Assembly: GCA_050084515.1 (NCBI GenBank)
Contig: CM114271.1
Location: 44,392,001-44,456,000, forward strand
Source: Blasia pusilla
Lineage: Eukaryota
DNA length: 64,000 nt
Direction of reading: 5' to 3'
Under the pieces are notes generated by a model. That model had not been told where the DNA came from. It worked only from the letters and a program-made list of their open reading frames with translations, and searched no databases. Below are positions 32,281 through 57,949 of the stretch, in pieces. The translations under genes and the position numbers were made by a program. Every line of letters begins with the position of its first letter. Position 1 is the first letter of the stretch.

Positions 32281-32808
32281 GACACCATGCATTTGGCAAC
32301 AAACTGCTGAACGTCAGTCTGCATGCCTGGCCACCAATACTGAATCTAGAGCAAGCTATACGTCTGCTTCACTCCAAAATGACCCAACTCCTGGTAGGCA
32401 TGACGCACCAAATGTGCTCTCTATGAAGGATGAGGCACTACACGCACACTACCGTCCTCCCACACTCGCAACACATGTGTGCCCTCCCACCGAAAGCGTC
32501 TAGCTCGCTGTAGGATCCCATCCTGCTCTCTAGCACCCATTGTGCTTGCAATGCTGCCAATATGTAGGTACTCCAAGACCATTCTATCATCTTAAATATC
32601 TCAGCCACTTGTCGTCTCCTCACCGACCTCTGGATCTAATGACTCTCCATCAGACCTCGCCATCGAAGTCTCAGCAATTTGGCTCTCCATAGCCAACAAG
32701 CCCAAATAGGCTGACACATGCCATCCTGGCAATGACTCCTCCTCATCACTCTCACCATGCCAATGAGCTCTAGTTGCATCTCGCTAACTTGGGCATGGGT
32801 TACGGCTC
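32281..32808 (-). mobile_element. Copy Y, 3' part (IN N-terminus), separated from its 5' part by insertion of E3
   Basis: Repeats the IN N-terminal sequence of 29060-29590. Ends gggttacggctc, which continues as (actc)aaacc at 50058. Confidence 0.8.
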
Positions 32809-34686: not shown

Positions 34687-36357
34687 TTGGTCATCACGGA
34701 GCTGTCTGGTGGTCGGGTTGGGGACCGTGGTGCGGACAATGGTGGTTTTACACGGAGTGGATTGAGGTATCGGCTACCTTTTCCACTTCCGAAGGTTGAT
34801 GAGGACGAGGACGAGGGTGTTCCAAACACTGAGTCTTCTACGTTGTTATCGAGTGTTGCAGCTCCATTGATTTGGGACATGGACGGGATATATGAGGCCA
34901 TGAAGGGCCCACGAGGATACTCGGGTGCAGTGGGCACCATTGAGTTGGAGGACTTCATTCAGGAGTTTGATACATGGTGTGATATGCAAATGTTGCGGAA
35001 CGCCACGTTGTTTACACCCTTCTTGGCTTGGAAGGGGTTGTTTCAGCACTTGGAGGGACCACCCATGGACGATTACCATGAGTTTAGGAGGGACCATGTT
35101 GCTGAGATTGAGGCATGGAGACAATATTGGTCTCTAGGCTATGTGTCTATCACCCATGGTGGTATTGGTAGTAGTGCTCCTACTGTGCTAGCCAACCCGA
35201 CGTTGAGTGGTACGAGTACGAGTCGGAGTGGGGGTACCAGTGGAGGTACCCATGGAGGTACTAGTGGGGGTACTAGTGGAGGTACTAGTCCCCCACCATC
35301 GTTCAGCCCGGTTGCAGAGTTCTTCGAGAGGTTGAAGAAGAACTATCAGGGAGTGAAGATAGAGAAGTTGAGGAGTCTTCAAGAATTTGAGCGAAACACT
35401 GGTGATAGTCTTCGTGAGGCATACACTCGTATGCGACGCTTGATTTCACGTACCCAGGGTGTGACTGAGGCTCAAGCAGTCCTATTTTGGTATGGGATCT
35501 TGGACAGAGAATTACGCCGCATGGTACGTGATGCTACTCTTATGAGTGATGATTCATCCACATTGCGCCATGTGTTTGCTCTATCTGAGAAGATTGAGCT
35601 TAACATGGTCGAGGAGAGAGTGGTGACATCCGCATTCAATAGGGATACAACAACTACTTCTCGTGTTCAACAGTCCACCTCACAGTCTTGTAGTAATGGT
35701 GGTGGTGGTAGTAGTAGTGGGAGTCGTGGGGGGTACACACGACCTCTGTTAGGTCCTAGAGGGACACTTGCGCAGAGACCATTGCCTTCATTTGTTGCCC
35801 CGCAGCAAGGACAGTCATGTTGGACATGTGGAGGTGATCATGTCAGGAGGTTTTGTCCCCAAGAGGATGGGAGACAAACTTTGGAGGATAGACCTCAATC
35901 AGCCCCAACTCAGTGTGATTATTGTGGGAGACCAGGTCATCCTCGAGAGCGTTGCTTTGATCTTCATCCAAAGTTGAGATCAGACCGCGGTTGTGGTGGA
36001 GTAGCTCCAAGAGGCCGAGGTGGTAAAGGTGGTAGGGGTGGTAGAGGTGGACCAGTGGTTGGAGAGCCTACGGTGGCTACCCCTACCACTACGACAAAGT
36101 CAGCTATGGCTGCCATGATTGAGCAATTGGAGCAGAGGTTGGCTAATATGGCTGGTATCCAACATAGAGCAGGTTCAGGAGCAGGGGCTTCCACCTCTTA
36201 TAGAGGGGATGATCTCTCTTATATGGCAAGTGCAGCACAGGCTGAGGCATCATCTGCAGTAACGAGAGGAACCACTCGAGCGTCAGAGCCACATGGTGCT
36301 ACTGTGGAGTTGGACCAACAGAGGGGTAAAGTTGGGAGGCATGCTAGGCTCCCCTAG
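34687..36357 (+). CDS. gag: E3 Gag (open frame, 556 aa)
   Basis: Two zinc knuckles (CWTCGGDHVRRFC, CDYCGRPGHPRERC), an RGG tract and a GGTS repeat. Homologous to the E1/Y gag (GAVGTIEL.DFI.EF..WCD). True start codon uncertain. Confidence 0.8.
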   Translation: MVITELSGGRVGDRGADNGGFTRSGLRYRLPFPLPKVDEDEDEGVPNTESSTLLSSVAAPLIWDMDGIYEAMKGPRGYSGAVGTIELEDFIQEFDTWCDMQMLRNATLFTPFLAWKGLFQHLEGPPMDDYHEFRRDHVAEIEAWRQYWSLGYVSITHGGIGSSAPTVLANPTLSGTSTSRSGGTSGGTHGGTSGGTSGGTSPPPSFSPVAEFFERLKKNYQGVKIEKLRSLQEFERNTGDSLREAYTRMRRLISRTQGVTEAQAVLFWYGILDRELRRMVRDATLMSDDSSTLRHVFALSEKIELNMVEERVVTSAFNRDTTTTSRVQQSTSQSCSNGGGGSSSGSRGGYTRPLLGPRGTLAQRPLPSFVAPQQGQSCWTCGGDHVRRFCPQEDGRQTLEDRPQSAPTQCDYCGRPGHPRERCFDLHPKLRSDRGCGGVAPRGRGGKGGRGGRGGPVVGEPTVATPTTTTKSAMAAMIEQLEQRLANMAGIQHRAGSGAGASTSYRGDDLSYMASAAQAEASSAVTRGTTRASEPHGATVELDQQRGKVGRHARLP

Positions 36358-37576
36358 TCATTCTTGTTGTCTGAGGTGCTTAGGACTCCATCCATGGTCT
36401 ACGCAGCCTATTGAGCCTACAGTGGGGACTGAGGCATCTACATCGCGTGTAGTAGACATGGATGCAGCATCCAATGCAGCATCCAATGCAGTATTGTGGA
36501 TGGCAACTTCAGTGTTGGGATCCCCATTATTTTCAGCCACTAAGTTGATGGCCTTAGGAGTTGACTTAGCTCATATATTTCAGCTAGCAGCCACGTTGTG
36601 TGAACGTGGGAGTGTTACTACTACACGTGCTGTGGTGGATGAGGGTGTTGCGATGGAGCAACCCTCTATGTCAGGTGTAGCATTGAGTACCACTACTACT
36701 TGGCAGGCAGTAGCGGCAAAGATGGATGCATTACCAGCCCGGCCAGCCATTGATTGTGAGAGGCTTACACATGGTGTATGTATGTTGGACAACCGGAGTG
36801 GGATATTCTGATTGGTGAGTCATATAGGACAGGTGTATAGACCAGATAGAGTCTTGTTAGACTTTGGTGCCCCACCTTTGATGTTGGGAAAGGCGGCATG
36901 TATTGGTTTGGGTATTCGGAGGTTAGAGCTTGAGCCTTGCCCATTCCAGATTTAGACATCACTTGGAGGAGCCAATGATAGGTCTCATTTCATGACACGG
37001 GATAAGTTTTCTATACAGTTGAGATCAGATCATGCGACTGATAGCTCCAGGTTGGGAGTACCTGCAGTGGTCACATCAGCCGAGTCGTATGATGTACTAG
37101 TTGGAGGAGCAATATTATACCCGATGGGTTTTCATATGGACTACTGGACTGAGACAGTGTCTTATAGACCTGTTTGGCAGTCTGGGGATGGACGTATGAG
37201 CCAGGTTCTTGTGAGATTTTTTTATGGGGCTCGACTAGGAGGGTCTTCCCCAACGGTGTTAGCATCTGTGGCTGGTTTTTGTGCAGTAGTCACTTGGCCA
37301 GGAGACTTTTTGGAGGGTAACCTTTCTGCTATGGGTTCTTCTATGCATGAGGAGGTAGAGGAGGTCCCTAGTTTTGCAGCAGTGGTATCCTCATCATTGG
37401 ATGTGCCACTTTGGAGTTCAAGCGGTGCACTACGGCAGGAGGCTGATCGCCTAGTGTAGGAGGCTTGGTGTAAGGCTGTTATACCTCACGAGGAAGAGGA
37501 GGCTCCATGGCGGACTCCTACTTCTGGTCCAATTGGGTTATCCCTTTGGATACTACACCCATTGTATGGCAGTATC
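36358..37576 (+). pseudogene. E3 pol, 5' part: aspartic protease region
   Basis: RVLLDFGAPPLMLGKA at ~36850 (DSG in E1) and YDVLVGG; a few stops. Interrupted at 37577 by the chromovirus. Confidence 0.8.
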
Positions 37577-38606
37577 TGTCGTGCGCCTACTCTCCTTGAA
37601 CGTTTATCTTGTTTGTTGCGAAGCGTGCGTTCAGTAGGTCACGCTCTCAACGATGATTTGCATCCAAACACGCACTTTGGTTAGTCGGGTCTTGGATCAA
37701 TCAGCGGGATTACTTTCCGAGTTCTCGTCTCGGACTCTCATCAAGCTCAACGTTCCTAGTTTTACGGTTTCCAACACGGGCAAATCCCGAAAGACTTGGG
37801 ACAGACTTTCTGGTCGGTTTAGGAAATTGAAACGGCATTTCGCGCCTAGCGGTTCCAATCGTCCGATGGACATCCAATGAGTTCCTCACCAAGACTCGCA
37901 CGAAGTGAATCTCGGGTTGGAATCCAAGTGTGGCGTACAAAGTCCACTCCCTTGGATCAGGTTTGGGTTTTGAGTTCCAACGCCAAACTCCCGTTCCATC
38001 CCGTGCCTCTGAAACGCCGTTTGGCGCCCAAAGTGGGGATTCGTTTCCCGAGACATCTCGGAGAGAATCCTCCCTTACTAGTACTTCTGGGGATCTCCGG
38101 GGGCCCCCTACATTTAGGGAAAGACACCCGGGCCTCTCCAATTGGCCCTCAACCCGATTGCTCTTTCAATCGTTTTTGGCCAATATCTCAGCCTGTACTT
38201 ATGTGTTTGCTGAGATCTTTAGTGCGTCGGAAGCGTCTCAAGATCAGCTTTCCAACGCGCCCTTATTTGTCCCAAACGCATATCGGATCTCAACGTTATG
38301 GTCTTAAACACAGTCAGATTCTCCCAAACGCTAGTGGTGTTTCAAATTGGTTCTCACCTCTTTGGCAACCAACCTCCCAAGACTCAACTCATCTCAAGTC
38401 TTGGCTCGCGTTGGGTCTAGGTTTCCAAGTCGCGACCACTAAGGCATGAAACGCACAACTCTGTTCCGCATTTCGTCTCTTAGACTTTTCCAAGAGACTT
38501 TTCCAAACGCCTCTCCAAAGCGCAAACCTTGCAGCGTGAGTTCCTTTGAGTTCTGATGTTTCGCTTGGTGCCTATTTGGTGTTGTTTGGTTTAGAGGGTC
38601 GCGACA
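37577..38606 (-). repeat. 3' LTR of chromovirus
   Basis: TGTCGTGCGCC...GGTCGCGACA, direct repeat of 43939-44969. Confidence 0.97.
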
Positions 38607-38619
38607 CTCACCCCTCCTT
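38607..38619 (-). other. Polypurine tract of chromovirus
   Basis: Minus strand AAGGAGGGGTGAG abutting the 3' LTR. Confidence 0.85.
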
Positions 38620-39299
38620 AGAAGGTTGATGTCCTCATCAACGCAAACCTTATTAATGTTAAGTTCTGGGAAGCCGACCCCTTAACACTAAATCGCGTTC
38701 TGGTAGCTAACTCGCAATTCCTCTTTTGGCTTAAGTCTTAGGTTGTCTCTTGCAGCACTTAGACTTATTAGCTTATTTTTTTCGATTAGCCTAGACCAGT
38801 TTTGCACAACTAATCTAAACTATCAAACTAAGCTCACTAAGTCTGCAACCTAACACTTCACTCACTATTTGTAAACAACCGCCTATCTACCTAGCCAACT
38901 CGTACTACTTTTGGGTCACTTATATTCCACCTAGGCGTGCACTAAGTTCAGTCATGCAACATGAATGAGATCACCATAAACCCCAAGAAAGACTCATCTG
39001 CCCCGCCGACGTTAGGGCAAGCCCAAATGCTACTACTTCAACACTTGGTCATGATCTAGATACCTTATCTGAATACAAGCTCTCACCTCAAATACTCATT
39101 GTTTGGTCTCCTTGACTTACATCCTAAGCATATGAAGAACTACTCATTGCCTTGCACAAACCAAACTCAAAATTACAATACAAGCATCGAATCTCCAAAT
39201 CCATGTCTTCTTTATTGCAACAACTAAACATTTATAGTTACAACGGGTTATCGGCCCAAGCTTTCCGGTCACAAGTTATGTCCATTGCTTCACCATGTA

Positions 39300-42200
39300 C
39301 TAACGCATGTGCCTTTCTTTCATCCATCTGATGTCACGCAATGCTTCTTGCGCGTGTTCAAGATCCGCCTCCGCAATCCAAGTCGCCTCTTTCACATGGT
39401 AGCCTTTCCACTTGACCAAGTACTCGTACTTGGTGGCTCTACGTCTCGAACGCAGAATGGTCTCAACCTCAAACTCTGGTTCCTCATTTCTGATGACCGG
39501 TTGTGGTCTCAACATCCTCCTTCGCTCCGGACGCACATTGTCTTGAAGACACTTCTTCAATAATGACACATGGAAAGTCGGGTGAATCTTGAACTTGTTT
39601 GGCAGCTCCAATGTGTACACATCCTCAAACGGCTTTGCCTTGATCACATATGGTCCAGCATACTTGGCTAACAATTTCGCGAACAATTCCTTCGGAAGAG
39701 TGAGATTCTTTCCACTCAACCACACTTGTTCCCCAACTTGGAAACTCACTTGGCGCCGACTTTTGTTAGCATGCTTCACGTACCTTAGTTGAGCCTTGGC
39801 GAGACTTTTCCTCGCTCGCTCTTGTCGTTCTTGCATTTCCACTAACAAACATTCCGCCGTTGCTTGACGAGTGTGTGTCGATGTAGCGCCCTTCGAAAGA
39901 GCTAAGTCAAGAGGCCCTTCTGGTTCTCTTTGATACGCCAGAAGAAATAGAGATTCTCCGGTTGCATAATGCTTAGTCGAGTTGTAACAATACTCAGCCA
40001 TACTTAACCACTTGGCCCAATCTCTCTGGTCTGCACTCACGTAATTCCGTAAGTATTGGTTTACGACCGAGTTTACTTTTTCCGTTTGCCCATCCGTTTG
40101 AGGATGGAAGGCCGTACTAAAGTTGAGTTTGGTCCGGAACCTCATGAATAGATGTTTCCAAAAGGCACTGGTAAACTTCGGATCTCGATCGGACACAATG
40201 CTCCTAGGCAATCCGTGCGCTCGCCACCAACCATCCAAGTATAGTCGGGAAGTCGTGTAGGCCGTCGCAGACTCTCTTGTCGGCACAAACCTCCCCAACT
40301 TGCTAAACCGATCAACTATCACAAGTATAGCATTCTATCCCTTAGATTCCGGAAGACTCGTAATGAAATCCATGCTAATGCTTTGCAAGGGTCCCTCCGG
40401 GATTGGCAAAGGATGAAGTAAGCCTTGTTTCTTTGCATAAGAAACGCAGTTCGCCTGACAGGTCATGCATGTTTTCACATATTGAGCAACATCTTCCTTC
40501 ATGTTGGGCCAGAAGAACCTTTTGGTCAAAACAGCAAGAGTGGATTTCTCCCCTTTGTGTCCCGCCAAAAGTCCATCATGACATTCCACAAACACCTTGG
40601 TCCGTAGCTTGCCTTGGCCTACATAGATCCTGCTCTGCTTAAACCTTAGCAAGCCGTGTCTCAAACTCAGATTGGCCACCTTCTCGCCCCGCTCTAACTT
40701 CCCAAGGTACTCCCTCGCTTGCGCATCCTTCATGCATCCTTCACGAATCCTTCTTTCCAGGTCTGTTTCATTAGGGAACATTGCTCCCAACACATGTGTC
40801 GTCGATGGCATGTGCTCATCCCTGCGACTTAACGCATCTGGAATGACATTGTCTTTCCCCGGCTTGTGGATTAGCTCCACATTCATCAATGCCAAGGTAT
40901 CATGCCACCGAAGTTGCTTTGGCGTTACGCGATCCTCGGTCTCAAAATACTTGAGCGATATGTTATCGGTGAATACTTGAGTCCTGTGAAGTCCCAGATA
41001 GTGACGCCACTCCTCAAGCAGTGAACCACCGCAAACAACTCTTTCTCATGAGTAGGCCATCTCCTTTCAGTGTCGCTAAGCTTCTTGCTCTCGTATGCAC
41101 CAACATTCCCGCAATCGCGAAATCACTAGCATCTGTGTGCACTTCGAACGGTTGGTCAAACTCTGGCAATTTCACAACTGGCGCCTGCGAGAGGATCTCT
41201 TTGACTCGATTGAACGATTTATCCACTTCCTCGATCCATGTAGTATTGGCAAACTTTGCGGTCCAATCCGTGAGAGGTTTCACTATTCCCGAAAAGTTCT
41301 TCACGTATGTCCGGTAAAACTGGACTGCTCCGATGAACCTTCTCATCCCCTTCACCGTGGAAGGCGGTTCCAATTCGGCAATTGCGCTTACCTTCTCCAT
41401 GTCTCGACTCACTCCATCCGCACTAACCACATGCCCCAAGAACTTGATCTTCGTCAAACCGAACTCACTCTTATCCGCATTCGCATACAGCTTGCTCGCC
41501 CTAAGTTTCTCAAACACCGTCTTCAAATGTCGAGCGTGCTCCTCTAGTGTTTTCGAATATATGAGTATGTCATCTATATAGATGATCACAAACTCATCCG
41601 TGTCCTTATGAAAGATGGAGTTCATCAAAGTGCTAAACGTTGGAGGCGCATTACAAAGACCAAAAGGCATCACCACAAACTCAAACGAACCGTATCTCGT
41701 TCTACACGCAGTCTTCTCTACATCCGCTTTGGCAATCCGAATCTGCTAATATCCTGATTTCATGTCAATCCGGATGAAATACTTGGCACCCAAAAATCGA
41801 TCAAAGAGGTCATCCATCCTTGGTAGAGGATAGTTGATCCTTACCGTCACTTTATTCAGCGCTCGATAATCAACACAGAGTCTCAACTTCCCATCCTTCT
41901 TCTTTACAAAGAGGACGGGTGCCCCATAAGGTGACTTGCTTGTTCGGATGTAAACCCTCTCTAGGAGTTCACCCAAATATTTCTTCAACTCAGCAAGTTC
42001 CTCTTGATTCAACCTATATGATGCTTTTGAAGGTGGTTGAGATCCTAGTATCACCTCAATCTTATGATCAACCGCCCTATGTGGTGGCAACTCAGTCGGA
42101 AGCTCCTTAGTCAAAACATCTCCAAATTCTTTCACAACTCTTTTGAGTGTTTAAGGGATTCCCCTTGAAGCTGAGTTCTGATCTCTGCATCTCGCGCTTG

Positions 42201-43850
42201 CATCATCCTCTACTTGTCTCATCAAGCAAAGGAATCCTTCCTCTAACTCGGCCAAACTCGTCCTCGTGATGGCGTTCACCAACTCCGTCTCCCTAGGCAC
42301 CTCACGAACCAATATGACGTCCGTCCGTTTTCCGTTAACCAAGATGCTCAACCTCAAAGGTCTTCGCCTCAGTTCTACCTCATACGCATCCAAGAACGTG
42401 TTCCCCAAGACTCCGTCGATACCGTCCATGTCGCAAACTGTGAAATTCTCCTTCAACTCAAATACTCCGCATCTCACAACTAGCCCTAAAACCATATCTG
42501 AAGTTTGGTGGGACTTGCCTCCCGCGAATCCTACCCTAATGGGTTCATCCGTCTTGGTGGTTGGTAATCCCAACGTTGTCACAATTCTCGGACTCAAGAA
42601 TGAGTGCGAAGCACCTGTATCAACGAGCAACATCACATCGCGATTAGCGATCCTCGATCCTAGGTAAACCAAATTGGGCGTTCTCTTGGTGACTTGTAGA
42701 GATGTATCTAGATCTCCCTCCAATAAATGCTTAGCGGCAAATGCAATCATACTCGGTTTACTAACCTTGGGCCTAACACATTCCTTAGCCATATGTCCGG
42801 GTTTGCCACAGTTGTAGCAAATCACTTTGGCATTCGTTGACTTCGTAAACGGCGGCCCTTTTGGCTTTGCGTTGATTTCCACTCGTTTCGCTGCTGGGGC
42901 AAGAGACCCTACGTGGTCGCGCTCACCCCCATTCCAAAACCCTCTTGGATGTCCCTTTGTTTTTCAGAAACTTAGAAAAACTTTTTGGCTCAAAGGGTTT
43001 CGGGTGTTGGACTTCATCGTCCCCAATCCGCTCTGCTAGTCTCAAAAGATCCGCGCACGTCTCTGGGATGTGAGGCATACAAAAGAGGGCCTTTTTGGCA
43101 CTCGGTTTGAGTCCACTTAGGAAGATCACCTTTTTTGTATGTTCATCCGTGGAAAGTGCACTCATGAGTGCACTAAACTCTCGCACATAAGCGCCAAGGG
43201 ATCCACTCTGGCGCAACCTCACCACCTCCATGCCATCGCGATAGTCCTGATATTCCGGAGTGAATCGGTTCCCAATCAACTCCTTGAAATCTTCCCAACT
43301 CAATGTTTTCCCACGACCTAGATGTTCTTTACGGTGAGCCGTCCACCAATGGAGAGCGTGATCCTTGAAACGTGACGCTCTGATCACTTTGTCTTGTTAA
43401 ATGCTCCGCTTTTGCGCTTCGAAATAAAGTTCACTTTCCGAGAACGCCCCATTCTTGTGAATGGCATAGGCAAATTAGTCTTACAAAGCTTCTTGCCGGA
43501 ACTAGAGGCTCCATTTGACTTGAATTCTCATATCACCTTGCTCTGTTCGGCCATCTGGTCCGCCATCACCTTCATCAATCCCATCATTTGGATATAAAAG
43601 GCCGGATCGTTTAAGTTTGGACCCAAAGGTCCCGCGGAAAGATTTTCGGTTGGAACATCCTCATGTCTGGGACTCGGCACTTTGGGCGTCGCAAATTCCA
43701 CCTCTGGCTCTCGGTCCGTCATTGATTCGTCCCTCGACTTTTTTGCTTTGACTCGCGATTTCCTCGGTTCTTCGCCTTTGGTCGCCATTTGCGAGTCTTC
43801 GCTTTCTCAGATCTCCTCCTCGCCTCTTGCGTTCCTCCTCGGCATCGTGG
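39300..43850 (-). pseudogene. Chromovirus gag-pol (Gag, CCHC, PR, RT, RNase H, IN, chromodomain) with a few stops/frameshifts
   Basis: CYNCGKPGHMAKEC; LLVDTGASHSF; YIDDILIYS; VHTDASDFAI; HDGLLAGH..CMTCQ; IVSDRDPKFTS; GPY; chromodomain EFEVETILRSR...YEYLVKWKGY..EATW. Confidence 0.93.
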
Positions 43851-43924
43851 TCTTCCGGCTACCTTGAGTTCTCCCCAAACGTCCAGATCTTCAACGACCC
43901 CAAGTTCATGCTCAACAAGGATAA

Positions 43925-43936
43925 GCTCTGATACCA
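43925..43936 (-). other. Primer-binding site complementary to initiator tRNA-Met
   Basis: Minus strand TGGTATCAGAGC, 2 nt inside the 5' LTR. Confidence 0.95.
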
Positions 43937-43938
43937 CG

Positions 43939-44969
43939 TGTCGTACGCCTACTCTCCTTGAACGTTTACCTTGTTTGTTGCGGAAGCGTGCGTTTAGTAG
44001 GTCACACTCTCAACGATGATTTGCATCCAAACACGCACTTCGGTTAGTCGGGTCTTGGATCAATCAGCGGGATTACTTTCCGAGTTCTCGTCTCGGACTC
44101 TCATCAAGCTCAACGTTCCTAGTTTTGCGGTTTCCAACACGGGCAAATCCCGAAAGACTTGGGACAGACTTTCTGGTCGGTTTAGGAAATTGAAACGGCA
44201 TTTCGCGCCTAGCGGTTCCAATCGTCCGATGGACATCCAATGAGTTCCTCACCAAGACTCGCACGAAGTGAATCTCGGGTTGGAATCCAAGTGTGGCGTA
44301 CAAAGTCCACTCCCTTGGATCAGGTTTGGGTTTTGAGTTCCAACGCCAAACTCCCGTTCCATCCCGTGCCTCTGAAACGCCGTTTGGCGCCCAAAGTGGG
44401 GATTCGTTTCCCGAGACATCTCGGAGAGAATCCTCCCTTACTAGTACTTCTGGGGATCTCCGGGGGCCCCCTACATTTAGGGAAAGACACCCGGGCCTCT
44501 CCAATTGGCCCTCAACCCGATTGCTCTTTCAATAGTTTTTGGCCAATATCTCAGCCTGTACTTATGTGTTTGCTGAGATCTTTAGTGCGTCGGAAGCGTC
44601 TCAAGATCAGCTTTCCAACGCGCCCTTATTTGTCCCAAACGCATATCGGATCTCAACGTTATGGTCTTAAACACAGTCAGATTCTCCCAAACGCTAGTGG
44701 TGTTTCAAATTGGTTCTCACCTCTTTGGCAACCAACCTCCCAAGACTCAACTCATCTCAAGTCTTGGCTCGCGTTGGGTCTAGGTTTCCAAGTCGCGACC
44801 ACTAAGGCATGAAACGCACAACTCTGTTCCGCATTTCGTCTCTTAGACTTTTCCAAGAGACTTTTCCAAACGCCTCTCCAAAGCGCAAACCTTGCAGCGT
44901 GAGTTCCTTTGAGTTCTGATGTTTCGCTTGGCGCCTATTTGGTGTTGTTTGGTTATGAGGGTCGCGACA
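43939..44969 (-). repeat. 5' LTR of chromovirus
   Basis: TGTCGTACGCC...GGTCGCGACA. Confidence 0.97.
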
Positions 44970-44979
44970 CTATCCGCTG

Positions 44980-45930: not shown

Positions 45931-46208
45931 CTTGGTATGGCCGAGCAGCGTCGACTTTGGACCATGTCTATGGATCTTCCACCCCTTGTGATGAGCTCGA
46001 TGGCTATTGGGACACTAGAGACATTGGCTGGGGGCAAGGAGAATAGTATTTTGCATCCTTAGAGTAAATGGGATGTAATGGCTGGGCATGTGGAGTTCGT
46101 TGCTCATGCTGATGGAGGAGTTATTTGCTCAAATGATGGTGTAGCTAAGGGTGTACCATCTTGTGAGGGGATTGCCTAGCAGCCAATGCGTCGTCCTCTC
46201 CCTCTAGT

Positions 46209-49200
46209 GTGCCAATGGAGGAGACTTGGGAGCCATTACTTGGGCCCAAGCTTACGGGAGGTGAGAAACGACGCTTGACACAGTTCCTACGTGCTTATAG
46301 GAGTTGTTTTGCCATTAGCATGAAGGAGTTGGGTGCTTGGGTTGGACCCGGTATACAGATTGATTTGGCTAGTGATATGCCAATCTTTCATCGTCCCTAC
46401 CGATATAGTGATATGGAGAGGGACCTGATTCAGAGTAGGACGTTGGACCTTTTAGAGGCTGGATTAGTGGAGTTGTCGCATGGAGAGTATGCGCCAACCA
46501 CTGTCATGCCTGCTAAAAAGGATGTGCATGGCAACTACATGGATAGGTGGATGTGTGGAGATTATTGTCCTATCAATCGGCAGACCAAGGCTGATAAGTA
46601 TGCCATGCCTACACCTGAGGAGATCTTTGATGTGGTGGGACAGGCAAAGATTTTCAGTAGTTTGGATCTTTGGGGAGGATACCATCAGTTGCCGATTCGA
46701 GAGAGTGACAAGGCCAAGACAACATTTTGGGGTGTCAACTCTCATGGCAAGTATTGTTTGTACCAGTGGAAATTCTTACCCTTTGGGTTGAAGAATGCAC
46801 CTGCCGAGTTTCAGAGAGTGATGGACAAGATCCTAGCAAGGTTGGATTTTGTTTGGTGTTACATTGATGATATCTTGGTGTTCAGTAACACGGTGGAGGA
46901 GCATCAGATAAATTTGCATATTGTGTTTGAGCGGTTGAAAGCTCATGGTCTACGTTTGCATCCAGGAAAGTGTAAGTTCTTCCATGAGGATGTTGAGTAC
47001 TTAGGTCATGTGATCTATCCAGGTGGTTTGGGAGTTCATCAAGCAAAGGTGGAGGCTATTGCACTTATTCCTCATCCGGTAGATGTGAGTAGAGTTCAAG
47101 CATTCATGGGATTGGCGAACTACTATCAGAGGTATGTGAAGAGATTTAGTGCTATGGCCAAGCCTTTGAACCAATTTCTGAAATCGGATGAGGAGTGGCA
47201 TTGGGGAGATGATCAAGAGAGAGCTTTTGTGGAGCTCAAGGCCCAGTTGGTGGCGGCGCCTATCTTGAGGAGACCTATTAGAGGGCGCCTATTTCAGTTA
47301 CACACTGATTGGAGTAGGTTGGGACTTGGAGCGGTGTTGACACAACATGATGATGAGCACATGGAGTTTGTGGTGGCCTATGCAAGTTGTTCGAATAATG
47401 CAACGGAGTCGCGCTATAGTTAATATGAGGGAGAGTGCTTGGCAGTAGTGTGGGCTGTGGCACACTTTAGGTGTTACTTGTTTGGCACACAGTTTACCCT
47501 TGTTACTAATCACCAGCCGCTCAAGTGGTTGATGGAGTGTGACAAGCTTACAGGGAAGCTTGCACGGTGGGCTCGTATCTTTCAGGAGTATGACTTCCAG
47601 GTGGTACATAGATCTGGAGTTGCAACCTTGATGCTGATGGGTTGAGTAGGAACCCATGTACTAGCCAAGAGGATACAACTGGGGCTAGATGGCATGGTGA
47701 GGTTGATGAGGAGATGGTGCCGGGTTGGCATGCATCTGCCTTTTTATGTTGGTTAGGGGTGGACTCTAGTATGGAGGACCACATGATATCTTACTCTAGT
47801 CAGACGGTAGATGGCGAGTCTTTAGATCCTAAGGTTGGAGATGGTGGTACGGATCAGCGTGATATTCATGATGATGCGTTGGTGTTGGAGTTCCTATTGA
47901 CCAGTAGGGTGCTAGACATAGTGAGTGCCAAGGAGCAAGACCGTGTTCTTCAACGTGCTAGGAGGTATCGATTGGAGGAAACACATATTCTTCTTGTGTG
48001 GGAGGATGGTAGAGTACGAGTGGTGCCGCATTTGGCTCAGAGAGAGCGCATTGTGCGACATGCTCATGAGGAGTTGGGACATTTTGGGGTAAAGCGTACG
48101 TATAGCTTACTCCTTGGCCAATATTGGTGGCGTGGCATGCATACTCAAGTGCAGCAGTTGGTATCACATTGTATGGTTTGTGACCGGGTGAGGGCATCAT
48201 TCAATGCACCTACACCACAGTTACACCCATTGCCTATTATGGGGTTGGGTTACCGTTGGAGTGTGGACTTTGCGGGACCGTTACCGTTGACTGTACGACA
48301 TTATCGATATGTGTCGGTGATAGTGGAGCACTTCTCCAAGTGGATTGAGTTGGTGGCATACCTAACAAGGCAAGTGAGGGAACCGCGTATGCGTTTCTTG
48401 ATAGAGTGCTTAGTCATTTTGGTGCACCAGCTGAGGTGTTGACCGACCAGGGTATAGAGTTTCAGGGTGAGTTTCAGGTCTTATGTGACAAGGTGTTGAT
48501 TGATCATCAGACCACGTATCGAGATCATGAAGAAGCGGATGGTTTGGCTGAGCGTGTGGTTCAGACGGTGAAGAGGGCATTGCGCAAGTATGGCCTACAA
48601 AAGGGGCATCTTGGAGACTGGGATATTCAGTTGCCATGGTTAGCCATGGGGTTTAGGTTTAGTCGCCAAGCATCCTTGGCTTCCTTCTCACCTTATTTTC
48701 TGTTATACGGCCGAGATCTAGACTTGCCAGCAACAATTCGTCGGGAGTCTAGTGAGGTGGTGAACCTTGATGACCCAGAGATGTGGATGAGAGTGTGTTC
48801 TCATTAGGCAGAGCTCTTTCGGAGAGTTATGCCAACAACCTTTGAGAATCTTGCCATTGCTCAACATAGGGATACGTTGCGGTATGCAACCATTCGGGAT
48901 GGAGGTTATTGGCCATCGATTTGTAGGTTCCATATGGGGGACTATGTCTATTTGCAGCAGATTGCACCGACAACGTTGGATGTGACGGCAGGCCGCACTA
49001 TTTTACGAGTGCGCAAAGTGTTAGCTTATGGAGTTCTTGTGTTGGAGGGTTGTGATGGCGTTGTTTGGAAGGACCATGTGCGTAATTGTGCCCCATGCCA
49101 TCTTCCAAATGTGGATGGTACTATTGATCCAAGCTTAGCCATGATACGTGCTAGCTTGAGGTGTATGTTGTGTGGGTCTGCTGGTAACGCAGCTCGTATG

Positions 49201-49302
49201 TTGGTGTGTGATCGGTGTTCTAGGGGTTGGCACATGATGTGCTTGACTCCATGTATGGATGTTGTTCCTACTGGAAGGTGGATTTGTTCTCGATGTACTT
49301 AG
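46209..49302 (+). pseudogene. E3 pol, 3' part: RT - RNase H - DDE integrase - PHD finger
   Basis: LPFGLKNAP, YIDDIL, LHTDWS; HAHEELGH..CMVC zinc finger, WSVDFAGP, LTDQG, DGLAERVVQTVK; terminal C4HC3 CMLC...LVCDRCSRGWHMMCL...WICSRC at ~49162-49296. Confidence 0.92.
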
Positions 49303-50057
49303 GAGGGATAGATGACTTGATCTTTGCATGATATGGATTACAGATGTGCGAGTAACGATGGGGCAACCTAGCACCCGGCCTTCTGATTGGTGCACCCACG
49401 AAGGTGTATAGCATGTAGTAGATGTATATGGCTACTTGGGAGTTAGAGGGACCTAACCGCCAGTTAGAGGGGTGAGTTTTGGTACACTTGTGTTTGTGGA
49501 TGCTCTCGTCTATGTTATCTATGTATGTGATTAAGGTTTGTCAACAATGTATGTTGTACGACGATTTGGATTCGCACGACAGGTGTCATGACCATACGGA
49601 TTATGTCGTAGAGTATAGTCTGCTAGTAGAGGCCGTACCTTATGTAGGGACGTAGTGTCTAGGTAGAGATGCGGTTTCATACATAGGGTTGGGGGTTACT
49701 CCGTTGAGGGTGACTTTTCCAGTAGGGCCCGCTCTTAGGTTGGAGGATATAGTGTGGAGTGCACTCAAAGAACAGACAGTTCTTTGAGTTGAGCATGTTG
49801 CGTTGGGAGTTAGCCTTGGTAGTGAGTAGAGCTCTTGGCTATGGTGGTTCCCGCAAGCTTCGCCCTGGATTCTCCAATCGTGGAGTGGATTTGGCTCGAT
49901 TGTATGTGATTCTATATGTGTTTTATGACAGTAGGTCTTTCACGGATTTTAGTTGTGGTACACTTGTGTTTGTGGATGCTCTCGTCTGTGTTATGTATGT
50001 ATGTGAGTATGGTATGTCAGTGATGTATGTTGTATTATGATGTGGATTTGCACGACA

Positions 50058-53000
50058 ACTCAAACCAGCTGTATCCAGGTTGAGCGTCCCAGATCTATGC
50101 ACCACATGGAAGTTATAATTCTGCAACAAAAGAGCCCACCTTGCAAGCTTCCCCTCTAAGCTTGTCGGACTCCATCAACCACTTAAGTGGCTAATGATCA
50201 GTAATGACGATAAAGGGATTGTCGAATAGATAACATCTGAAATGTGCTACAGCCTACACTGCAGCCAAGCACTCACCCTCATTCGAGCTATACTTACCCT
50301 CATCGCATCAAAGATCTTCTCAGGGATGGGCATGGCATACCTATCGGACTTTGTCTCTTGATTGATAGGTTGGTAATCTCCACACATCCGTCTATCCGTC
50401 CAATTGCCATGCACATCCTTCTTGGCGGGCATGACAGTGGCAGTTGCATACTCTCCATGCGACATCTCTACTAGTCCTGCTCCAACCAAGTCCTGGCTCC
50501 TACTCTGAATCACAGCCCTCTCCATGTTTTGTACCTATAGGGTCTTCGAAAGATCGGTGTGTCACTCCACAACTCAATGGAGATCCTGGACCCTTCAGCG
50601 TACCCAAATCATGTATACTAAATGCAAAACAACTCCTATAACTCCTAAGGAATTGGTGTATCCGACGCCGCTCTACTCCTATCAACTTAAGGCCCATATC
50701 TGGCTCCCAAGTCTCCATCGTGACTACGATAGGACTCTCCGGTACGAATGTCGGTGGTTGTTATGGTGCAACCCCGTCTCAGAAAATAGAACTCTCATCT
50801 CCACGTGCAGTACCCGGAACCACGCTTGATGTTGTGGCTATCATCTCTTGGCATACATACAAAACATCCCAAGAAGTCCAAGGGTGTGTCTCTCGATCAC
50901 CCCTAGTGTGTTGATCTCCTTGGGTCTTGCCCCTAGCCACTGCCCCAACTGTCTCTGTAGGCATGGGGCTCACCAACGCAACAACTGTGATCTGTCACAT
51001 CCTCAAACGATGCTGCTCAGCTACTACTAAGCTGAAATCCATTTCAAGCAATTCAAGTCCATCGCCTAATCCAAGACATGACGTCATGATGCATTCAATA
51101 GTGACGATACTGTCGTCACTCCTGTGGGGAATCCCATCGCTCGCTCTCGCTCATCGGCGTTGGACTCCAACAACCTCTGTACTTGGTCATCCCAAACCAA
51201 GCCAGGTCCGCCCATAGGAAGCGGGAAAACTCACAAATGTGGGAAAGGCTGCTCATGGCATGCCAATCCTCTTGACCACAATCAATAGCGGTTGATCATT
51301 GTGCCTCACTGTCTATGATCGACGGCCCGGATCCAATGTAGAATCCACCAACAAATCGGAGGGATGCTCCACTCTCGCATAAGCCCTCCGCAACACCTCA
51401 TGTGGTACCAAGTTGGTCCATAAAAGACGCGGGCATTGTGCTCTAGAACCTACACTCGCCGCATCTAACAACATTGCCGTGCCGATCCATGCGCGCACTT
51501 GATGTGCACTCGTCACCATGCGGGACCTCGAATTGCCCAAAATTGGCACATTCTCCAAAATATATCCTGGACAATGAGGTTGATGCTCATGTAAATGTCG
51601 CAAGATCCGCATCATCTCCCAAAACAACCTCAACCGAGCGTCAGCTAACCCGCTACCTCGTCCAACACTCGATTAGCCCTGACACGTCCAACCAGCAATG
51701 ACAAAGTCTATGGTCCCTACCCGCTCCAAGTCATGCGCCCCCTACAATAAAATATCCCTTGGTAGTGAACTGTGGGAACCCTAAATGGCGGACGCTGACA
51801 ACAAGTTGGGAAAACGGAGGCGTATTAGCACCACATGGTGAAGTGAAGCGTGCCTCACAACATCATCAATCTCCACATACACATACTGCTGCACGCGCAC
51901 TCCAGCGTGCAAAAAAGCAGCTAACCTAGTGTTCATCCCTCCAAAGAGATCCAACACTCGAATTCCCTCCTTTGGGATGCACCACACAATCAGGGTGGTG
52001 TCCAAAGGGGTCATAGCAGCACTCTTGCCTACCAGGGGTTCCTCTGACCCGTCACACTCTAGTGCAAACGTCTCGCTCCACGCGGTCTACACATGCTCAA
52101 TGGCTAAGCGTCGAAGCTCCTCAGTCGAGCCCCAAAGCACTGCTCTCCTCCATAGACAAATGCGGCTACCATGACACTCCTCTTCATGGAAATGTCAAGA
52201 ACGGGAATATCCTCTGCATAGACATGTCCCTCAATCAAATCACTAGGCCAAGTGATGGCACTGCTAAATGCTGCTAAGGTCGCCATCTCTCCAGGCCGTC
52301 ACTCGATCACTGCACCTATCAATCGAATGGGTAATGAGCTAAGGCACCCATCACTTGACTGCCATCCTGGTCTGTAGGATGCTGACTCTTCCCAATAATC
52401 CAGGGAAAACCCCATTGGGTATAACACTGCTCCACCAACCAGACGTCGTAGGACTCTACATCAATCACTATCCCCTTGGCTTGTACCACGGACTCATTTG
52501 TAGGATGTCCCGGCGAATCCTCACCACGACCTCCTGTCACGTGATATATTGTGTGGAACTCGCTCCACCCAAGGATGTCTGTATCCGGAATGGACAATGC
52601 TCCACATCGGCTCTCGTCAAGCCCAATCCTCTGAATGACGCTTTCCCCAACATCACGAGTTGCGCTCTTGAATCCAATAAGACATGCTGCGAATTAAAAG
52701 CTCTACCTCTAGGATTCACCAACAGGAAGACCTCTCCCTGGTTATCAAGCGACACAACACCAGAAGCCATGGCACGCTCGATCGTGGATCTAGCGAGCAT
52801 CTCCGCCATCCTAGTAGCCGCAGCCTACCATAAATTTGAAGTGGACGGCCTGGGCATCCGCTCCAAGGGCAGATCCATCACCTCCTCTGCAATCACCTAT
52901 GAATGTGATGCAAGAACTCCAACTCCATGCTCATATAGTGTAGCGTCCAACCGAAAAACCTTGGCGGGCATACCTCCCAATGTCATAACATCGGAAGCAG

Positions 53001-55260
53001 AAAATAAAGAAGCGCGATACAAAACAGTGGCCGCCCCCACCAACGTGCTCGACACATGCCCCTCTTGAGCATCAAGAATAGGAGTCGTCGCACTCGCTTC
53101 TCCCATCGCCCTCTGTGCCTGCACACCAAAAGCATCACCAACTCTCTAGGAACTCTGATCAGGACCCATCGATGGGGTCCTCATTGCCTTGGACAACGTG
53201 AAAAATTGAGGAAGCATGGTCTGTTTTCTAGCTTCATTTAGCTGTGGATCCAACTCAGCGGCTTCTCCACGCGTCAAAATTGCGGCGGCCTCCATTTGGG
53301 CAACCCCGCACATCCAACCAGGATCCTCCATATCTTTGGTTCCTCCATATGATGTCGATGCCATGGATGTGGCATCGGGTAACCTCAATGCCACAACGGC
53401 AATCTGCTCTTGTAGCTGCTGTATGTGATCAGCCATCCGAGCCTCACGTCCGACGTCTCCCTTGATGCGTCTAGGTGGTGAGACTCTACCTCCTCCACGT
53501 GCAGCTCCACCACCCTGTCGGGAAACTCCAACTCCTCGTCTCCCAACAGGACCACCTGGTGCACGACCTCTAGCCCCACTTGGACCGGCTACTCGCTCTG
53601 GTGTCCTCTCTGACCCTCGGTCCGATTGTAACTCAGGATATAAATTGAAACACCTGGCGCGTGTATGACCATACCTCTGAAAATGGTCATACTGATAACC
53701 TCTTGTTGCAGCACCATCTCCTCCTCCATGCTAAGGCACACGTCCATGACACTAACGAGTGCAATCGCGTTGATGATGAGCTCCACCACATGACCAACAA
53801 GTAATAGTAGGCGACTGCTGCTGAGCCACATATGAAGGTGCAGGTCTCTATGGCACGGCCTCTTGCTATCCTCCCTCAGTCGTGGTGCCACAATCAACCT
53901 ATCTCGGAGTCCATGTTGCTGCACAGGTGGTGCATATCATCGTGACTGCTCTCACCCAGAACCCATGGTGGCTACGCTCTCCTCTGCCATGTTGCGCTCA
54001 ATGTTCTCGGCGGTCCTAAAAACATCTCTCAAAGTAGGGGAGGTGTTCATAAGCACCCAACTTCTCCGTCCATACCCCTTGGTAGCTCACCCTCAACTCA
54101 GCAAATAACTCAACCACGGGGTTGAACCTCGGACGAACCTGACTAGATGGTGCAACTGCTCCAATGCGAGTGACCCCTCCTAAAACATCACTAGTGGAAG
54201 AGGAAGTAGCCTCTCCTAACTCCTCCTCCTCATCTGGGAACGGCTCCGTCTATGACACATAGTGTGGGTCATAGTAGAGTCGCCATGCCTCAATCTCCTG
54301 GGCATATCTGTGGGAGAACTCATGGTAATCGTCCATGGGCACCCCCTCCAAATACTAGAACATACCTTTCCATGTTGTAAACGGGTTGAACTCTCTAGAG
54401 TTCCTAGTCCGCTCTGAGTCACACCAACTCCTAAACTCTGCAATGAAGTCTTGTAGCTCTATAGTGCCTACAGCACCCGAAAATCTACGCGGTCCTCTAC
54501 CGCGGTCATCCATCTCGTACGCCCAACTGGCAGGACCACTCAATGTGTACAGTGGGTCACTAAAACACTCCTCTACATGCTCACTCTCATCTGAAGATGA
54601 TACAGAAGGAGATTGAGGTGGTCTCTCACGTGGAGACCCTCGAAACCTCGCACCACTCCAGGTAAACCCTCTAGAGCTACTCTCAGGTCCACTACCTCGC
54701 CTCTCAAAATCCCAAAAGGACGCGGTGATGGCCCTCGTGCCCCTCTCATACCATCACTCTCAATCTCGTGAGTAATCCCTCAATCACTCAAACTAAACAT
54801 TCGGCACTCAATCTCCACTCTCTCACTGAGACGTGTATTGTGCGGCAACAAGCAGCGTGGTGCGGAAAATCAACCGATCTATTGTCTCATTGACAAACCA
54901 TCCTCAACTCTGGACATCCCACACAGGTCTATGTATCCTAAAACCATAGATCATCCATGCTACTAGCATTAACACGAAACCCAATATCCCAAATAACTTC
55001 CCAATATCCGGAAATCCCTCACACGTGCAAGGTAAGAGACCAGAATGGGTAACCTGACAATAATGTGGATATTGCTCGTCGGCAACTGCAAATCTCGACC
55101 CCAACTTGGTCATGAAGACAACTCCTCTAATCAGCAAATCGTACTCCTCTCGTACCGACGTTGCTCGATCCTTCTCGATTTATGGTGCAAGTCCAACTGT
55201 TCGATGCGGCACTAGCGGCACGGAACGGCTACAAATGGCACGGCACTCGGCGGCATATCC
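50058..55260 (-). mobile_element. Copy Y, 5' part: E1-family 5' UTR, gag, PR, DNMT, RT (mostly deleted at ~50297), RNase H tail
   Basis: Reverse-complement homology to E1 3930-8900. DNMT motifs IRVLDLFGGM (ORF 51781-52014), DFVIAGWTCQG, YILENVP and RAQCPRLLWTNL (ORF 51313-51633). Confidence 0.88.
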
Positions 55261-55269
55261 TCCTCAATG

Positions 55270-55570
55270 AGAAATTTACATGCTCTGCACCTTAGTGAAG
55301 GAGCGCACAAGGTCATTCCAAACCATATCATCGCGTCCCTCCAATAAGAGAACATCACGTGGCAAAACCTCATGCTCTCTCAAGATAGTGCGCCTTGCAA
55401 TCACATCCAACATCGTGGGTACCGTCTGTTGCAAGTAGATATAATCTCCCTAATAAAACCTCCAGATAGTCGGTTGATAACCATCTCCCTGAATAGTCGC
55501 ATACCTCAACGAACCCTGATGTTGCGCAATCGCCAAGTTCTCAAACGTCATGGGAATCACTCTAGACCTC
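55270..55570 (-). mobile_element. Isolated integrase C-terminal fragment of the same group
   Basis: Reverse complement matches 10120-10390 (FENLAIAQH..LRYATI..GDYIYLQQ..VWNDLVR). Confidence 0.7.
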
Positions 55571-56128
55571 TGAATTAATATTATATATTTTAATTAGAAA
55601 AGAATTAACTTAATTAAGAATATTTTTTTAATAAATTAAAAATTCAAATGGAAATATGAGGAAACGATTTCCCTTTAAAAAATTGGACTATTTAAATATT
55701 AATTAAAAAAAACTTTTAAAAAATTGGAGAAATATCTAGGTTGTAAAAAGTTGAACATGTTCTAATTAAGACGTTAGTAGTATGCAAATGTATTCTTTCT
55801 TGAATTCTATATGCAAACTCTAATTCTCTTGATAAATAATTTACATTCCAATTCAAAGCATATATAACTTTGATAACAAATTTCTCATCTAGTGTGTAAA
55901 TAGAGGATACAATTTTGATTTTTCCATACTTGAAATGATTGACACAAGGGATTTTTTTTATATGCGCTTATGATTATATTTATAATGTAGGCTTCAATTG
56001 TTTATAAATAGTGATTGACGATATCCTATTGACAATAGGAATACAAATTCAATTTAGACAAAAATGCCACAAAAATATATCCATGTAATGCTTACTTAGG
56101 TCTAAATTTTCAAAGTTGGATCATATAC

Positions 56129-56763: not shown

Positions 56764-57518
56764 TATCGTGCGCATACCCATCGCTACAAAATCCACGTCG
56801 CTGGCCATATCTATACACCATATGACACCGATCTTCCCAACACACGAGTTGACCCACCCACAAAAAAAGTACACTCACACATATACATCAAGACCACACA
56901 ACAAAAACCAAAGTAAAAATGGTTCGGTGTATCGAGCCACATCCACCCTCAACTATGAGGGTGGATGTGGCTCACACACACACACACACACACACACAAG
57001 AGAGGTGCTCCTAAGGCCCAACATGTAAAATATGGCTTGCGAAAGCCATCTCTTCCTCTCTTATAGCCTTTGGAAGAGCCAAAAGGCTTTTTCCCGAAAA
57101 AATAGCCATCCCAACCGTAATTTGCATGCATATCTTATTGGATGATCGTTGACACTATCAAAGGGTCACCTAACTGAGTAAGAATAAACTAGGGAGATCT
57201 TTAGAGACAATTTTCCCAATGCAACGGATCTCCTGCTAGCCTCATCCGACATCTTAGGACAAAGTTATGCCCGAGCAACCCATTGACCCTTTATGCCGAC
57301 GACGAGGTAGAAATTTACATATCGGCTAACTAAGGTATGACAATCGTCATGTGCATACACATTGCTACACAATCCACATCGTTGGTCACATCTATACATC
57401 ACACAACATCGATCTTCCCAACATATGGGTCAAACCACCCATAAACAAAATACACTCGAGCATATACATCGAGACTATACAATTTCCCCCCTAGTTGGAA
57501 ATTGGGTCCCCCTAACTC
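56764..57518 (-). mobile_element. B-A-B 3' terminus of a third split-repeat family (B1 ~57480-57345; AT; A2 57342-~56900; B2 ~56900-56764)
   Basis: Direct repeat 56764-56900 / 57345-57480. Minus-strand junction ...GCACATGACG-AT-TGTCATACC; outer end ...GCGCACGATA. Preceded by GAGTTAGGGGGACCCAA..CAACTAGGGGG, the motif that precedes B1 in E1 and E3. Confidence 0.72.
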
Positions 57519-57949
57519 CAAACAACAGACATCACATCTACTTGACATGATCTACTACTCTATACACATTTAGCATCAAAATGGTTTTCTTCCCTCTTGG
57601 AAAGGACTCTTCTCAAGTGCAGACAACGACTCTTGCGAATCTTAGATAACAAAGTTCAAACAAAGACCTCAAAGAGACCTCAAGAATAGGCAGCTCATCC
57701 TACTTTCATAACTGAATCTATCACAACGCGTTACTCACTGTCTAATAGCTTTCCTATGCTCTTCTTGATTATCTTATGGAATTCTGAAATCAAAAGACTC
57801 AACTCTCATCCCTACTGCAGCCGCCTAATAAGGTTTCACACTCGATCAACGATGCCATCATCCTTGCAACATCTCCCAACACATACTCTTCGGTGGATCC
57901 ATCTCATCTATCTCCACCTAGAGATATCAACAAGTGTTTGTAGTTGACA

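Follow-up and report, generated by a model that had tools for sequence, protein, structure and literature searches.

Results

Split-repeat elements in the window

The window, by which we mean the whole 64-kb stretch of DNA that was analysed, contains on its plus strand an element, E3 (32809-50057), with a segment A alone at its 5′ end and the series B-GG-A-B at its 3′ end (Table 1). In a self-BLAST of the window, A1 (32811-33174) and A2 were 96% identical over 364 nt, and B1 and B2 86.9% identical over 107 nt. The sequence downstream of A1 is unrelated to B, and no B-like segment was found there. The same layout occurs in E1, with a GT spacer, and in a third 3′ end, with an AT spacer. No pol was detectable beside this third end (56764-57530), and its 5′ end lies beyond the window.

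E3 sits in a minus-strand copy of the E1 family, copy Y. When both halves of Y were aligned with E1 and copy X, the break fell precisely on the TG-type start of A1 (here TATC, by a G-to-A change) and on the terminal CA of B2. The flanking tetranucleotides, GCTC and ACTC, agree at 3 of 4 positions in the alignment to uninterrupted copies. The uninterrupted site is itself present in the raw reads of two runs that bear one organism label, as the two joints 32804→50058 and 32805→50059, carried by 119+148=267 reads in run X9 and by 115+186=301 reads in run X10. Because the joints fall at these positions, B2 belongs to the inserted unit and A1 has no B on its left. Two contigs of run X2 span the boundary between A1 and the primer binding site (PBS). 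The first-pass annotation had described E3 as ending in B1-GG-A2-B2 with A only at its 5′ end, and its coordinates and letters were correct. It had assigned the same layout to E1 and to the 56764-57518 end, which is borne out, the latter on the minus strand, and it had proposed an insertion into copy Y with TG..CA-type ends and a gctc/actc near-duplication, which the alignment and the empty-site reads of both runs confirm.

Table 1. Features of the split-repeat elements and of their neighbours in the window.
Feature	Coordinates	Strand	Basis or details
Left target-site duplication of E3 (GCTC)	32805..32808	+	alignment to E1 and copy X; empty-site joints in reads
E3 A1, starts TATCATGACC (TG mutated to TA)	32809..33175	+	self-BLAST, sequence comparison
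TATA-like motif within E3 A1	32972-32977	+	sequence
Predicted self-primer within E3 A1	33004-33014	+	complementarity to PBS
Predicted R-U5 portion of E3 A1	up to 33175	+	positions of PBS and self-primer
Predicted PBS of E3	33176..33186	+	pairs with 33005-33014: 10 nt and one G-U pair
E3 5′ ORFs (564, 182 and 167 aa), presumed gag/protease region, broken by nested element	34663..37459	+	
E3 pol, several frames	46167..49302	+	RVT_1, RNase H, Integrase_H2C2, rve, C-terminal PHD finger
E3 RVT_1 and RT_RNaseH_2	46167-47423	+	
E3 RT_RNaseH	47424-47642	+	
E3 Integrase_H2C2	47612-48442	+	
E3 rve	48349-48807	+	
E3 conserved purine-rich block (polypurine tract, PPT)	49438..49474	+	ends ...TAGAGGGGTG, abuts B1
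E3 B1 (5′ part of U3 in reverse-transcription terms)	49475..49581	+	ends GCACGACA
E3 spacer GG, 2 nt	49582..49583	+	inside CA-nn-TG palindrome
E3 A2	49584..49950	+	starts TGTCATGACC
E3 B2, right end of integrated element	49951..50057	+	ends ...GCACGACA
Right target-site duplication of E3 (ACTC)	50058..50061	+	alignment, empty-site reads
E1 A1	2323..2833	+	predicted self-primer at 2658-2673
Predicted PBS of E1	2834..2849	+	16 nt complementary to 2658-2673
E1 polypurine block	10740..10775	+	ends ...TAGAGGGACG
E1 3′ end	10776..11469	+	B1 10776-10892, GT, A2 10895-11352, B2 11353 to about 11466-11469
Third element, 3′ end	56764..57530	-	polypurine block 57483-57530 (reads ...AGGGGGGAAA), B1 57345-57482, AT, A2 56902-57342, B2 56764-56901
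Copy X of E1 family, pol fragments	28253..32278	-	
Copy Y of E1 family, split by E3	50058..55563	-	other part 32284-32808
Nested chromodomain Ty3/gypsy element	37577..44971	-	ordinary 1033-bp LTRs, 99% identical

The chromodomain element nested in E3 stands outside the split-repeat system. It is young, its ends are TGTCGTGC...GCGACA, and it encodes gag, protease, reverse transcriptase (RT), integrase and a chromodomain. Its empty site was seen as the joint 37572→44971 in 431 reads of run X9, and most E3-family copies are without it.

Some further observations were made in the window. Immediately upstream of copy Y's 5′ part is a 3′ fragment of an E1-family pol (PHD region; 55285-55581, minus strand), and the region therefore holds a rearranged or truncated fourth copy. 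The coding strand of the segments 4000-11000, 28000-32000, 33000-37500 and 45000-50000 is strongly G/T-rich, with a GC skew of +0.15 to +0.29 that flips with orientation. An ORF at 13044-13769 (minus strand) weakly matched Helitron_like_N (E = 1.7e-6, just under the Pfam cut-off), and tandem-like direct repeats are present at 15584-16815 (period of about 590-650 bp) and at 61735-62894 (about 700 bp).

Coding capacity and protein relatives

The pol of E3 has the order RT - RNase H - integrase and is colinear in tblastn with proteins P0005 and P0014; matches to rve and PHD were also found in the ORFs of E1. In both elements the C-terminal end of pol is a PHD finger (PF00628), and a chromodomain is found only in the nested 37577-44971 element. 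The PHD finger, standing in the place of a chromodomain, points to chromatin-guided targeting.

A total of 65 stop-to-stop ORFs from both strands of E3 were scanned, 23 of them of at least 150 aa (some from other elements) and 42 of at least 70 aa. No match to a tyrosine recombinase (PF00589) was obtained among these 65 ORFs. The 5′ ORFs of E3 gave no Pfam match at E ≤ 0.05, whether to gag, to protease or to any other family; protease domains are present in some of the RT relatives of E3. The DNA methyltransferase domain PF00145 was not found in the ORFs of E3 or E1.

The closest RT relatives of E3 are from the liverworts Calypogeia (76%) and Marchantia (70-79%), together with Sphagnum. Next come Klebsormidium, Closterium and Haematococcus, with identities of 45% and 40% for K. 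nitens proteins. Most of these relatives combine integrase and PHD finger. The host is presumably a bryophyte-like plant with a large genome. As a separate observation, many of the relatives (for example P0003, P0006, P0009, P0015 and P0020), Marchantia proteins included, have a pol that also contains, next to integrase and PHD finger, a domain of C-5 cytosine methyltransferases (PF00145), which extends to liverworts and metagenome lineages an observation made in K. nitens.

The A...B-A-B layout recurs in related elements

A scan of metagenome contigs by RT alignment yielded 80 loci, on which, as on the window, the A and B segments of three families were mapped. The split-repeat elements among them have RT identities to E3 of 38-82%. 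The order A...B-nn-A-B was found in 8/8 elements in which both ends are visible and the 3′ end is complete (E1, E3, L002, L004, L015, L022, L023 and L037), and 7 more loci (L008, L010, L012, L014, L017, L027 and L028) have a B-A-B 3′ end with the 5′ end out of view. These counts include the near-duplicates L022/L023, L014/L015 and L027/L028; distinct metagenome elements amount to 5 that are full-length A...B-A-B and 5 further with the B-A-B 3′ end alone. Since the same order of A and B recurs in distinct metagenome elements, the E3-type layout is more than chance, and since these elements are related at low RT identity, the comparison of sequences says that it is not a deletion product. The count of A...BAB against AB...AB copies that the first-pass annotation had suggested was run on metagenome relatives and on the host reads. 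A full A-B unit at both ends, in which case the annotation would have taken E3 and E1 for products of ordinary LTR elements, was not the rule: B directly follows none of the 16 5′ A copies mapped on the 80 loci and the window. Nor was any A-B-nn-A-internal-B copy seen among about 20 elements.

Wherever the junction is cleanly readable, that is in 13 distinct elements, the spacer in CA-nn-TG is 2 nt long, L027, degenerate at this point, being the sole exception. Its letters vary: besides those of the window, we found GT in L022, GC in L002, L006, L010, L012, L014/L015 and L017, AC in L004 and L008, and AA in L037. A structure that is programmed rather than due to chance nesting, as had been proposed from three copies, is supported by this clade-wide constancy. 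The series PPT-B-nn-A is also found after pol in four more distant loci (L026, L030, L031 and L066; B2 is outside this count). As a palindrome scan with 8-bp arms returns chance matches too, only those located after a PPT downstream of pol were kept.

Target duplications of 4 bp flank 6/6 elements examined. Four are perfect (AAGG in L002, TTTA in L022, ATGT in L037 and TACA in L011), and two, in E3 and L015, match at 3 of 4 positions. The integrated ends are of the TG...CA type, TGTCATG...CACGACA. Together with the rve and Integrase_H2C2 domains and the lack of a tyrosine recombinase match in the 65 ORFs, these duplications support the DDE integration that had been suggested at the outset, and the order A1-internal-B1-A2-B2 is indeed the Ngaro-like one proposed with it.

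Some copies have a shorter 3′ end. L006 reads A...B-A and is ended by the locus edge. L011 reads A...B; it is a complete A-internal-B copy (L011:4730-13369) with its perfect TACA duplication. In L021 (8022-8190) and L025 (8459-8636), a single B lies directly against flanking DNA, without A2 or B2. The single-B copies L011, L021 and L025 could be recombinants between B1 and B2, or integrations of one-LTR circles.

The 17.6-kb E3 stretch attracted 114,282 of 12,431,861 sampled X9 reads (about 0.9%), with a depth over E3 of about 760-1430x. Among the 15 best-supported read joints listed, 262 further joints and 9066 further loose ends existing, none leads from the B end into the sequence that follows A1 or from the PPT into A2.

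Some candidates were set aside. L043 and L053 had been read as A...BAB with a B of 57 nt, a reading that was dropped as this "B" is RT coding sequence around an inserted repeat; in their true 3′ end the PPT-B is interrupted by another insertion. The identical contig ends of L030 and L048, considered as evidence of circles, were rejected and taken as assembly loops of repeated elements. Separately, L043:14172-14950 has a CA-TA-TG junction (GGGTTACA TA TGTAGCCC) between apparent head-to-tail copies of a different repeat, the pair having inserted into the B segment of an L015-like element (group 2).

The integrated copy and the reverse-transcription repeat have different ends

A run of G directly precedes B1 in every element (5-9 G in the metagenome groups). 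This PPT forms a conserved island shared by the families: in each run, some 600 reads of the E1 family match 49439-49472 only, and among the loose ends listed they leave it into E1-type B. Because the PPT, the expected site of the plus-strand primer, directly precedes B1, U3 starts with B.

The predicted PBS lies directly after A1 in group 1 (E3, E1 and L002) and 2 nt after it in group 2 (L015, L022 and L037). It is complementary to a site inside A, 125-176 nt upstream, and the sequences involved differ between lineages. In E3 the complementarity spans 10 nt and one additional G-U pair; its length is 16 nt in E1, 17 in L002, 8 in L004, 11 in L015, 13 in L022 and 10 in L037; in a control of 2000 random placements in the window, at least 10 nt were reached in 1.1% and at least 13 nt in 0.25%. 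A TATA box is found 25-32 nt upstream of the self-primer site. From the TATA box and the complementarity, the transcript is predicted to start some 30 nt past the TATA box in A, and its end is placed alike. The elements would therefore be self-priming, their PBS pairing with the first 10-17 nt of the predicted transcript. In RNA folds, the 5′ end is closed on the PBS in both the MFE and the centroid structures, with z = -0.5 for E3 and -4.2 for E1. Given the self-priming PBS and the TATA box, the core promoter, R and U5 all lie in A, and U5 ends where A ends.

At the A2/B2 boundary, the end of U5 is followed by the start of U3 with no extra letters, in the same register in 10/11 elements. No diagnostic column distinguishes B1 from B2 in either group, and element-specific states are shared by both. 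B1 and B2 are thus renewed from one template in each cycle, and a separate inheritance, with B2 derived from the parent's B2, was rejected on the same ground.

By the positions of these signals, the repeat made by reverse transcription is B-nn-A, and not A+B. The integrated copy, unlike this repeat, is bounded by the TG of A and the CA of B. Because its ends are permuted with respect to the B-nn-A repeat, the genomic copy reads A - PBS - internal - PPT - B-nn-A - B. Where B1 meets A2, the two integrase ends stand 2 bp apart and form a palindrome (e.g. CATGACA-nn-TGTCATG). The first-pass annotation had compared CA-nn-TG to the junction of a 2-LTR circle: this holds in that it joins two integrase ends, with the refinement that in terms of reverse transcription its place is inside U3, the true U5/U3 junction being A2/B2. 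A circular intermediate, which the annotation had put forward as possible, would fit the route proposed below.

We considered whether the elements are after all ordinary LTR elements, with an LTR made of A+B at both ends, of which the copies seen would be products of deletion, recombination or nesting. The A+B unit has the TG...CA ends and the terminal inverted repeats of a normal LTR, and E1 and E3 are degenerate, frameshifted copies. Such an origin would, however, leave unexplained the lack of B after every 5′ A, a PBS located at the end of A1 or 2 nt beyond and co-varying with the self-primer, a PPT placed before B1 and not before A2, and the recurrence of one layout in elements at 38-79% RT identity. 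The absence of a B-to-post-A1 joint among the 15 listed, at a depth of about 1000x, speaks against it as well, and we regard this explanation as very improbable.

We give equally little credit to the idea that the split repeats have no part in transposition and come about in the host genome once the element is integrated, through gene conversion or unequal recombination. The A-internal-B copies (L011, and the 3′ ends of L021 and L025) indicate that recombination between repeats probably occurs. Host events would nevertheless not be expected to give the 2-nt spacer, the PPT before B1 and the clean U5/U3 abutment again in many independent lineages, nor element-specific states common to B1 and B2.

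A proposed route through joined LTRs

According to the textbook account, an LTR retrotransposon integrates its linear cDNA by the ends, and circles with joined LTRs lead nowhere. In the present elements the ends used by the integrase do not coincide with those of reverse transcription, so that either a joined-LTR intermediate or an unknown priming trick seems required. Our preferred reading is that these elements form a clade of self-priming Ty3/gypsy elements with a PHD integrase, which opens head-to-tail joined LTR DNA at CA-nn-TG. We infer this mechanism from the anatomy, and estimate its probability at roughly 0.6.

Standard strand transfers would yield a linear (B-nn-A)-PBS-internal-PPT-(B-nn-A) molecule. 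Its own termini (AGTT.../...ATTTC in E3) would lack the TG/CA inverted repeat and hence would not be integrase substrates. Since the right LTR must be followed by another B, a head-to-tail LTR-LTR junction would be needed; the two LTRs might be ligated, which gives a 2-LTR circle, or the reverse transcriptase might switch templates from end to end. Integrase would then nick both strands at one CA-nn-TG, 2 bp apart, producing recessed CA-3′OH ends with 2-nt 5′ overhangs, and the permuted molecule would be inserted. A copy of R at the 3′ end is retained in A...BAB products only, so that only these could found new copies; L011 and other A-internal-B copies would be dead ends, and for L011, L021 and L025 both one-LTR circles and B1xB2 recombination would fit.

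A different possibility is that reverse transcription alone makes a linear A...B-nn-A-B cDNA, which is inserted by ordinary end-processing integration. The classical TG...CA integrated ends with their 4-bp duplications are what such a cDNA would leave, and the uniform A2/B2 register is that of a templated product. The scheme demands, though, an extra plus-strand primer ending at nn and a second copying of B after A2. The sequence before A2 (the end of B and nn) is neither purine-rich nor conserved, no template carries B beyond U5, and the end of U5 shares no microhomology with the end of the PPT that could drive a jump by homology. This route therefore appears unlikely to us.

The split repeats also invite a path of the DIRS/Ngaro kind, in which the internal B-A serves as template to restore a single-copy circle, which then enters the genome by recombination rather than by DDE strand transfer. 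The layout is indeed the A1-internal-B1-A2-B2 described for DIRS elements with split direct repeats (PMC8969392, PMC5890265). Against this, E3 encodes rve and H2C2 domains and no tyrosine recombinase in its 65 ORFs, and 4-bp target duplications are found here where DIRS elements are described without them (PMC8969392). Moreover, a single-copy circle opened at one site cannot yield a duplicated A and a duplicated B. We hold this path to be highly improbable, if slightly less so than deletion from ordinary LTR elements or rearrangement in the host.

Returning to the joined-LTR route, some points weigh against it. A remaking of A2/B2 by host end-joining on each occasion would be expected to leave some length variation, yet the register is uniform in 10/11 elements. 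A 2-LTR circle contains two identical att sites, and a cut at the other one would produce A-B-nn-A-internal-B; no such copy was seen among about 20 elements, so that an unexplained choice of site or strong selection is needed. In addition, B1 and B2 of E3 differ at 14/107 positions and A1 and A2 at 14/364 (13% against 4%; Fisher p = 0.0016), which is unexpected if the B copies were identical at insertion. Transitions make up about half of the changes in the B pair and in the A pair alike, and B1 and B2 of E3 each share states with different family members; the excess may be due to CpG hot spots, or to B copies of different origin.

A stronger version of the proposal is that integration throughout this bryophyte/streptophyte-alga clade always requires joined LTR DNA, as 2-LTR circles or in an equivalent form, the DDE integrase opening a palindromic att site in U3. 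We advance it tentatively, as a serious possibility that we stop short of favouring.

Discussion

With respect to Ty3/gypsy elements, E3 has the expected order of pol domains, a DDE-type 4-bp duplication and TG...CA ends, but no identical LTRs at its very ends, the 5′ end being A only and the PPT preceding B1 and not the terminal unit. With DIRS elements it shares the split direct repeats, but neither the tyrosine recombinase nor the absence of a target duplication. The chromodomain that chromoviruses have at the integrase C-terminus is missing from E3 and E1.

The nearest description is that of KnitGypsy-Dnmt3 from Klebsormidium nitens (de Mendoza et al. 2018), which has Gypsy domains and repeats reported to be "the same as that of a DIRS retrotransposon" (PMC5890265). 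Both the Gypsy domain composition and the A-coding-B-A-B repeats described there are found in the E3/E1 family (PMC5890265). KnitGypsy-Dnmt3 carries a Dnmt3-type cytosine methyltransferase in pol, whereas the ORFs of E3 and E1, in a bryophyte-like genome, show none. The text and legend that describe KnitGypsy-Dnmt3 give no PPT or PBS positions, spacer, target duplication or mechanism (PMC5890265). In the searchable literature, the name was not found beyond that article, and no other description of the anatomy or mechanism of PHD-integrase or split-repeat Gypsy elements was found in literature exclusive of supplements and subscription journals. The E3/E1 family is thus a new case of a barely described Gypsy type with DIRS-like repeats, already noted once (PMC5890265). 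New here are its occurrence in bryophyte-like genomes and in numerous metagenome lineages, the location of PPT, PBS and TATA box, a palindromic att site with a 2-nt spacer in U3, target duplications of 4 bp, and the argument, which results from these, for joined LTRs as the substrate of integration.

Tf1 primes itself over 11 nt, and Tf1/sushi and Tcn1 elements have ordinary LTRs and chromodomains. What Tf1/sushi and the plant Tcn1 Ty3/gypsy elements have in common with E3 is self-priming, through a PBS complementary to the start of their own transcript and without a tRNA (Neumann 2019, PMC6317226). The likeness is one of features; E3-type elements differ in their permuted repeats and in the PHD finger at the end of their integrase.

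The junction of retroviral circles is U5/U3, and the circles are generally regarded as side products. Circle junctions of bacterial IS elements (IS3/IS30 type) are likewise palindromic and DDE-cut. In retroviruses the 2-LTR circle junction resembles CA-nn-TG: two ends a few bp apart form a palindrome that a DDE enzyme cuts, as is reported for the integrases of HIV-1 and foamy virus (PMC1905944, PMC1180852). The E3-type palindrome differs in lying inside U3 and in being present in every genomic copy.

As to Ngaro/PAT-type DIRS elements, they share the A1-internal-B1-A2-B2 order, with an internal copy of the joined ends (PMC8969392, PMC7192593), while they use a tyrosine recombinase and are described as making no target duplication (PMC8969392). 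In E3-type elements the integrase is of the DDE type, the ends are TG...CA and the target duplication measures 4 bp, and the 65 ORFs of E3 gave no tyrosine recombinase.

On the practical side, LTR-finding software that expects two identical terminal repeats will mis-annotate or misdate such elements. The family is abundant and ancient. Whether a DDE integrase can make productive use of a circle junction is an old question that becomes testable in bryophytes, and relatives occur in the model liverwort Marchantia. If joined LTR DNA is indeed obligatory for integration, these elements would stand naturally between classical LTR elements, DIRS elements that use circles, and episomal pararetroviruses, and would be a natural counterpart of the once-abandoned model of retroviral integration in which the circle junction is the att site.
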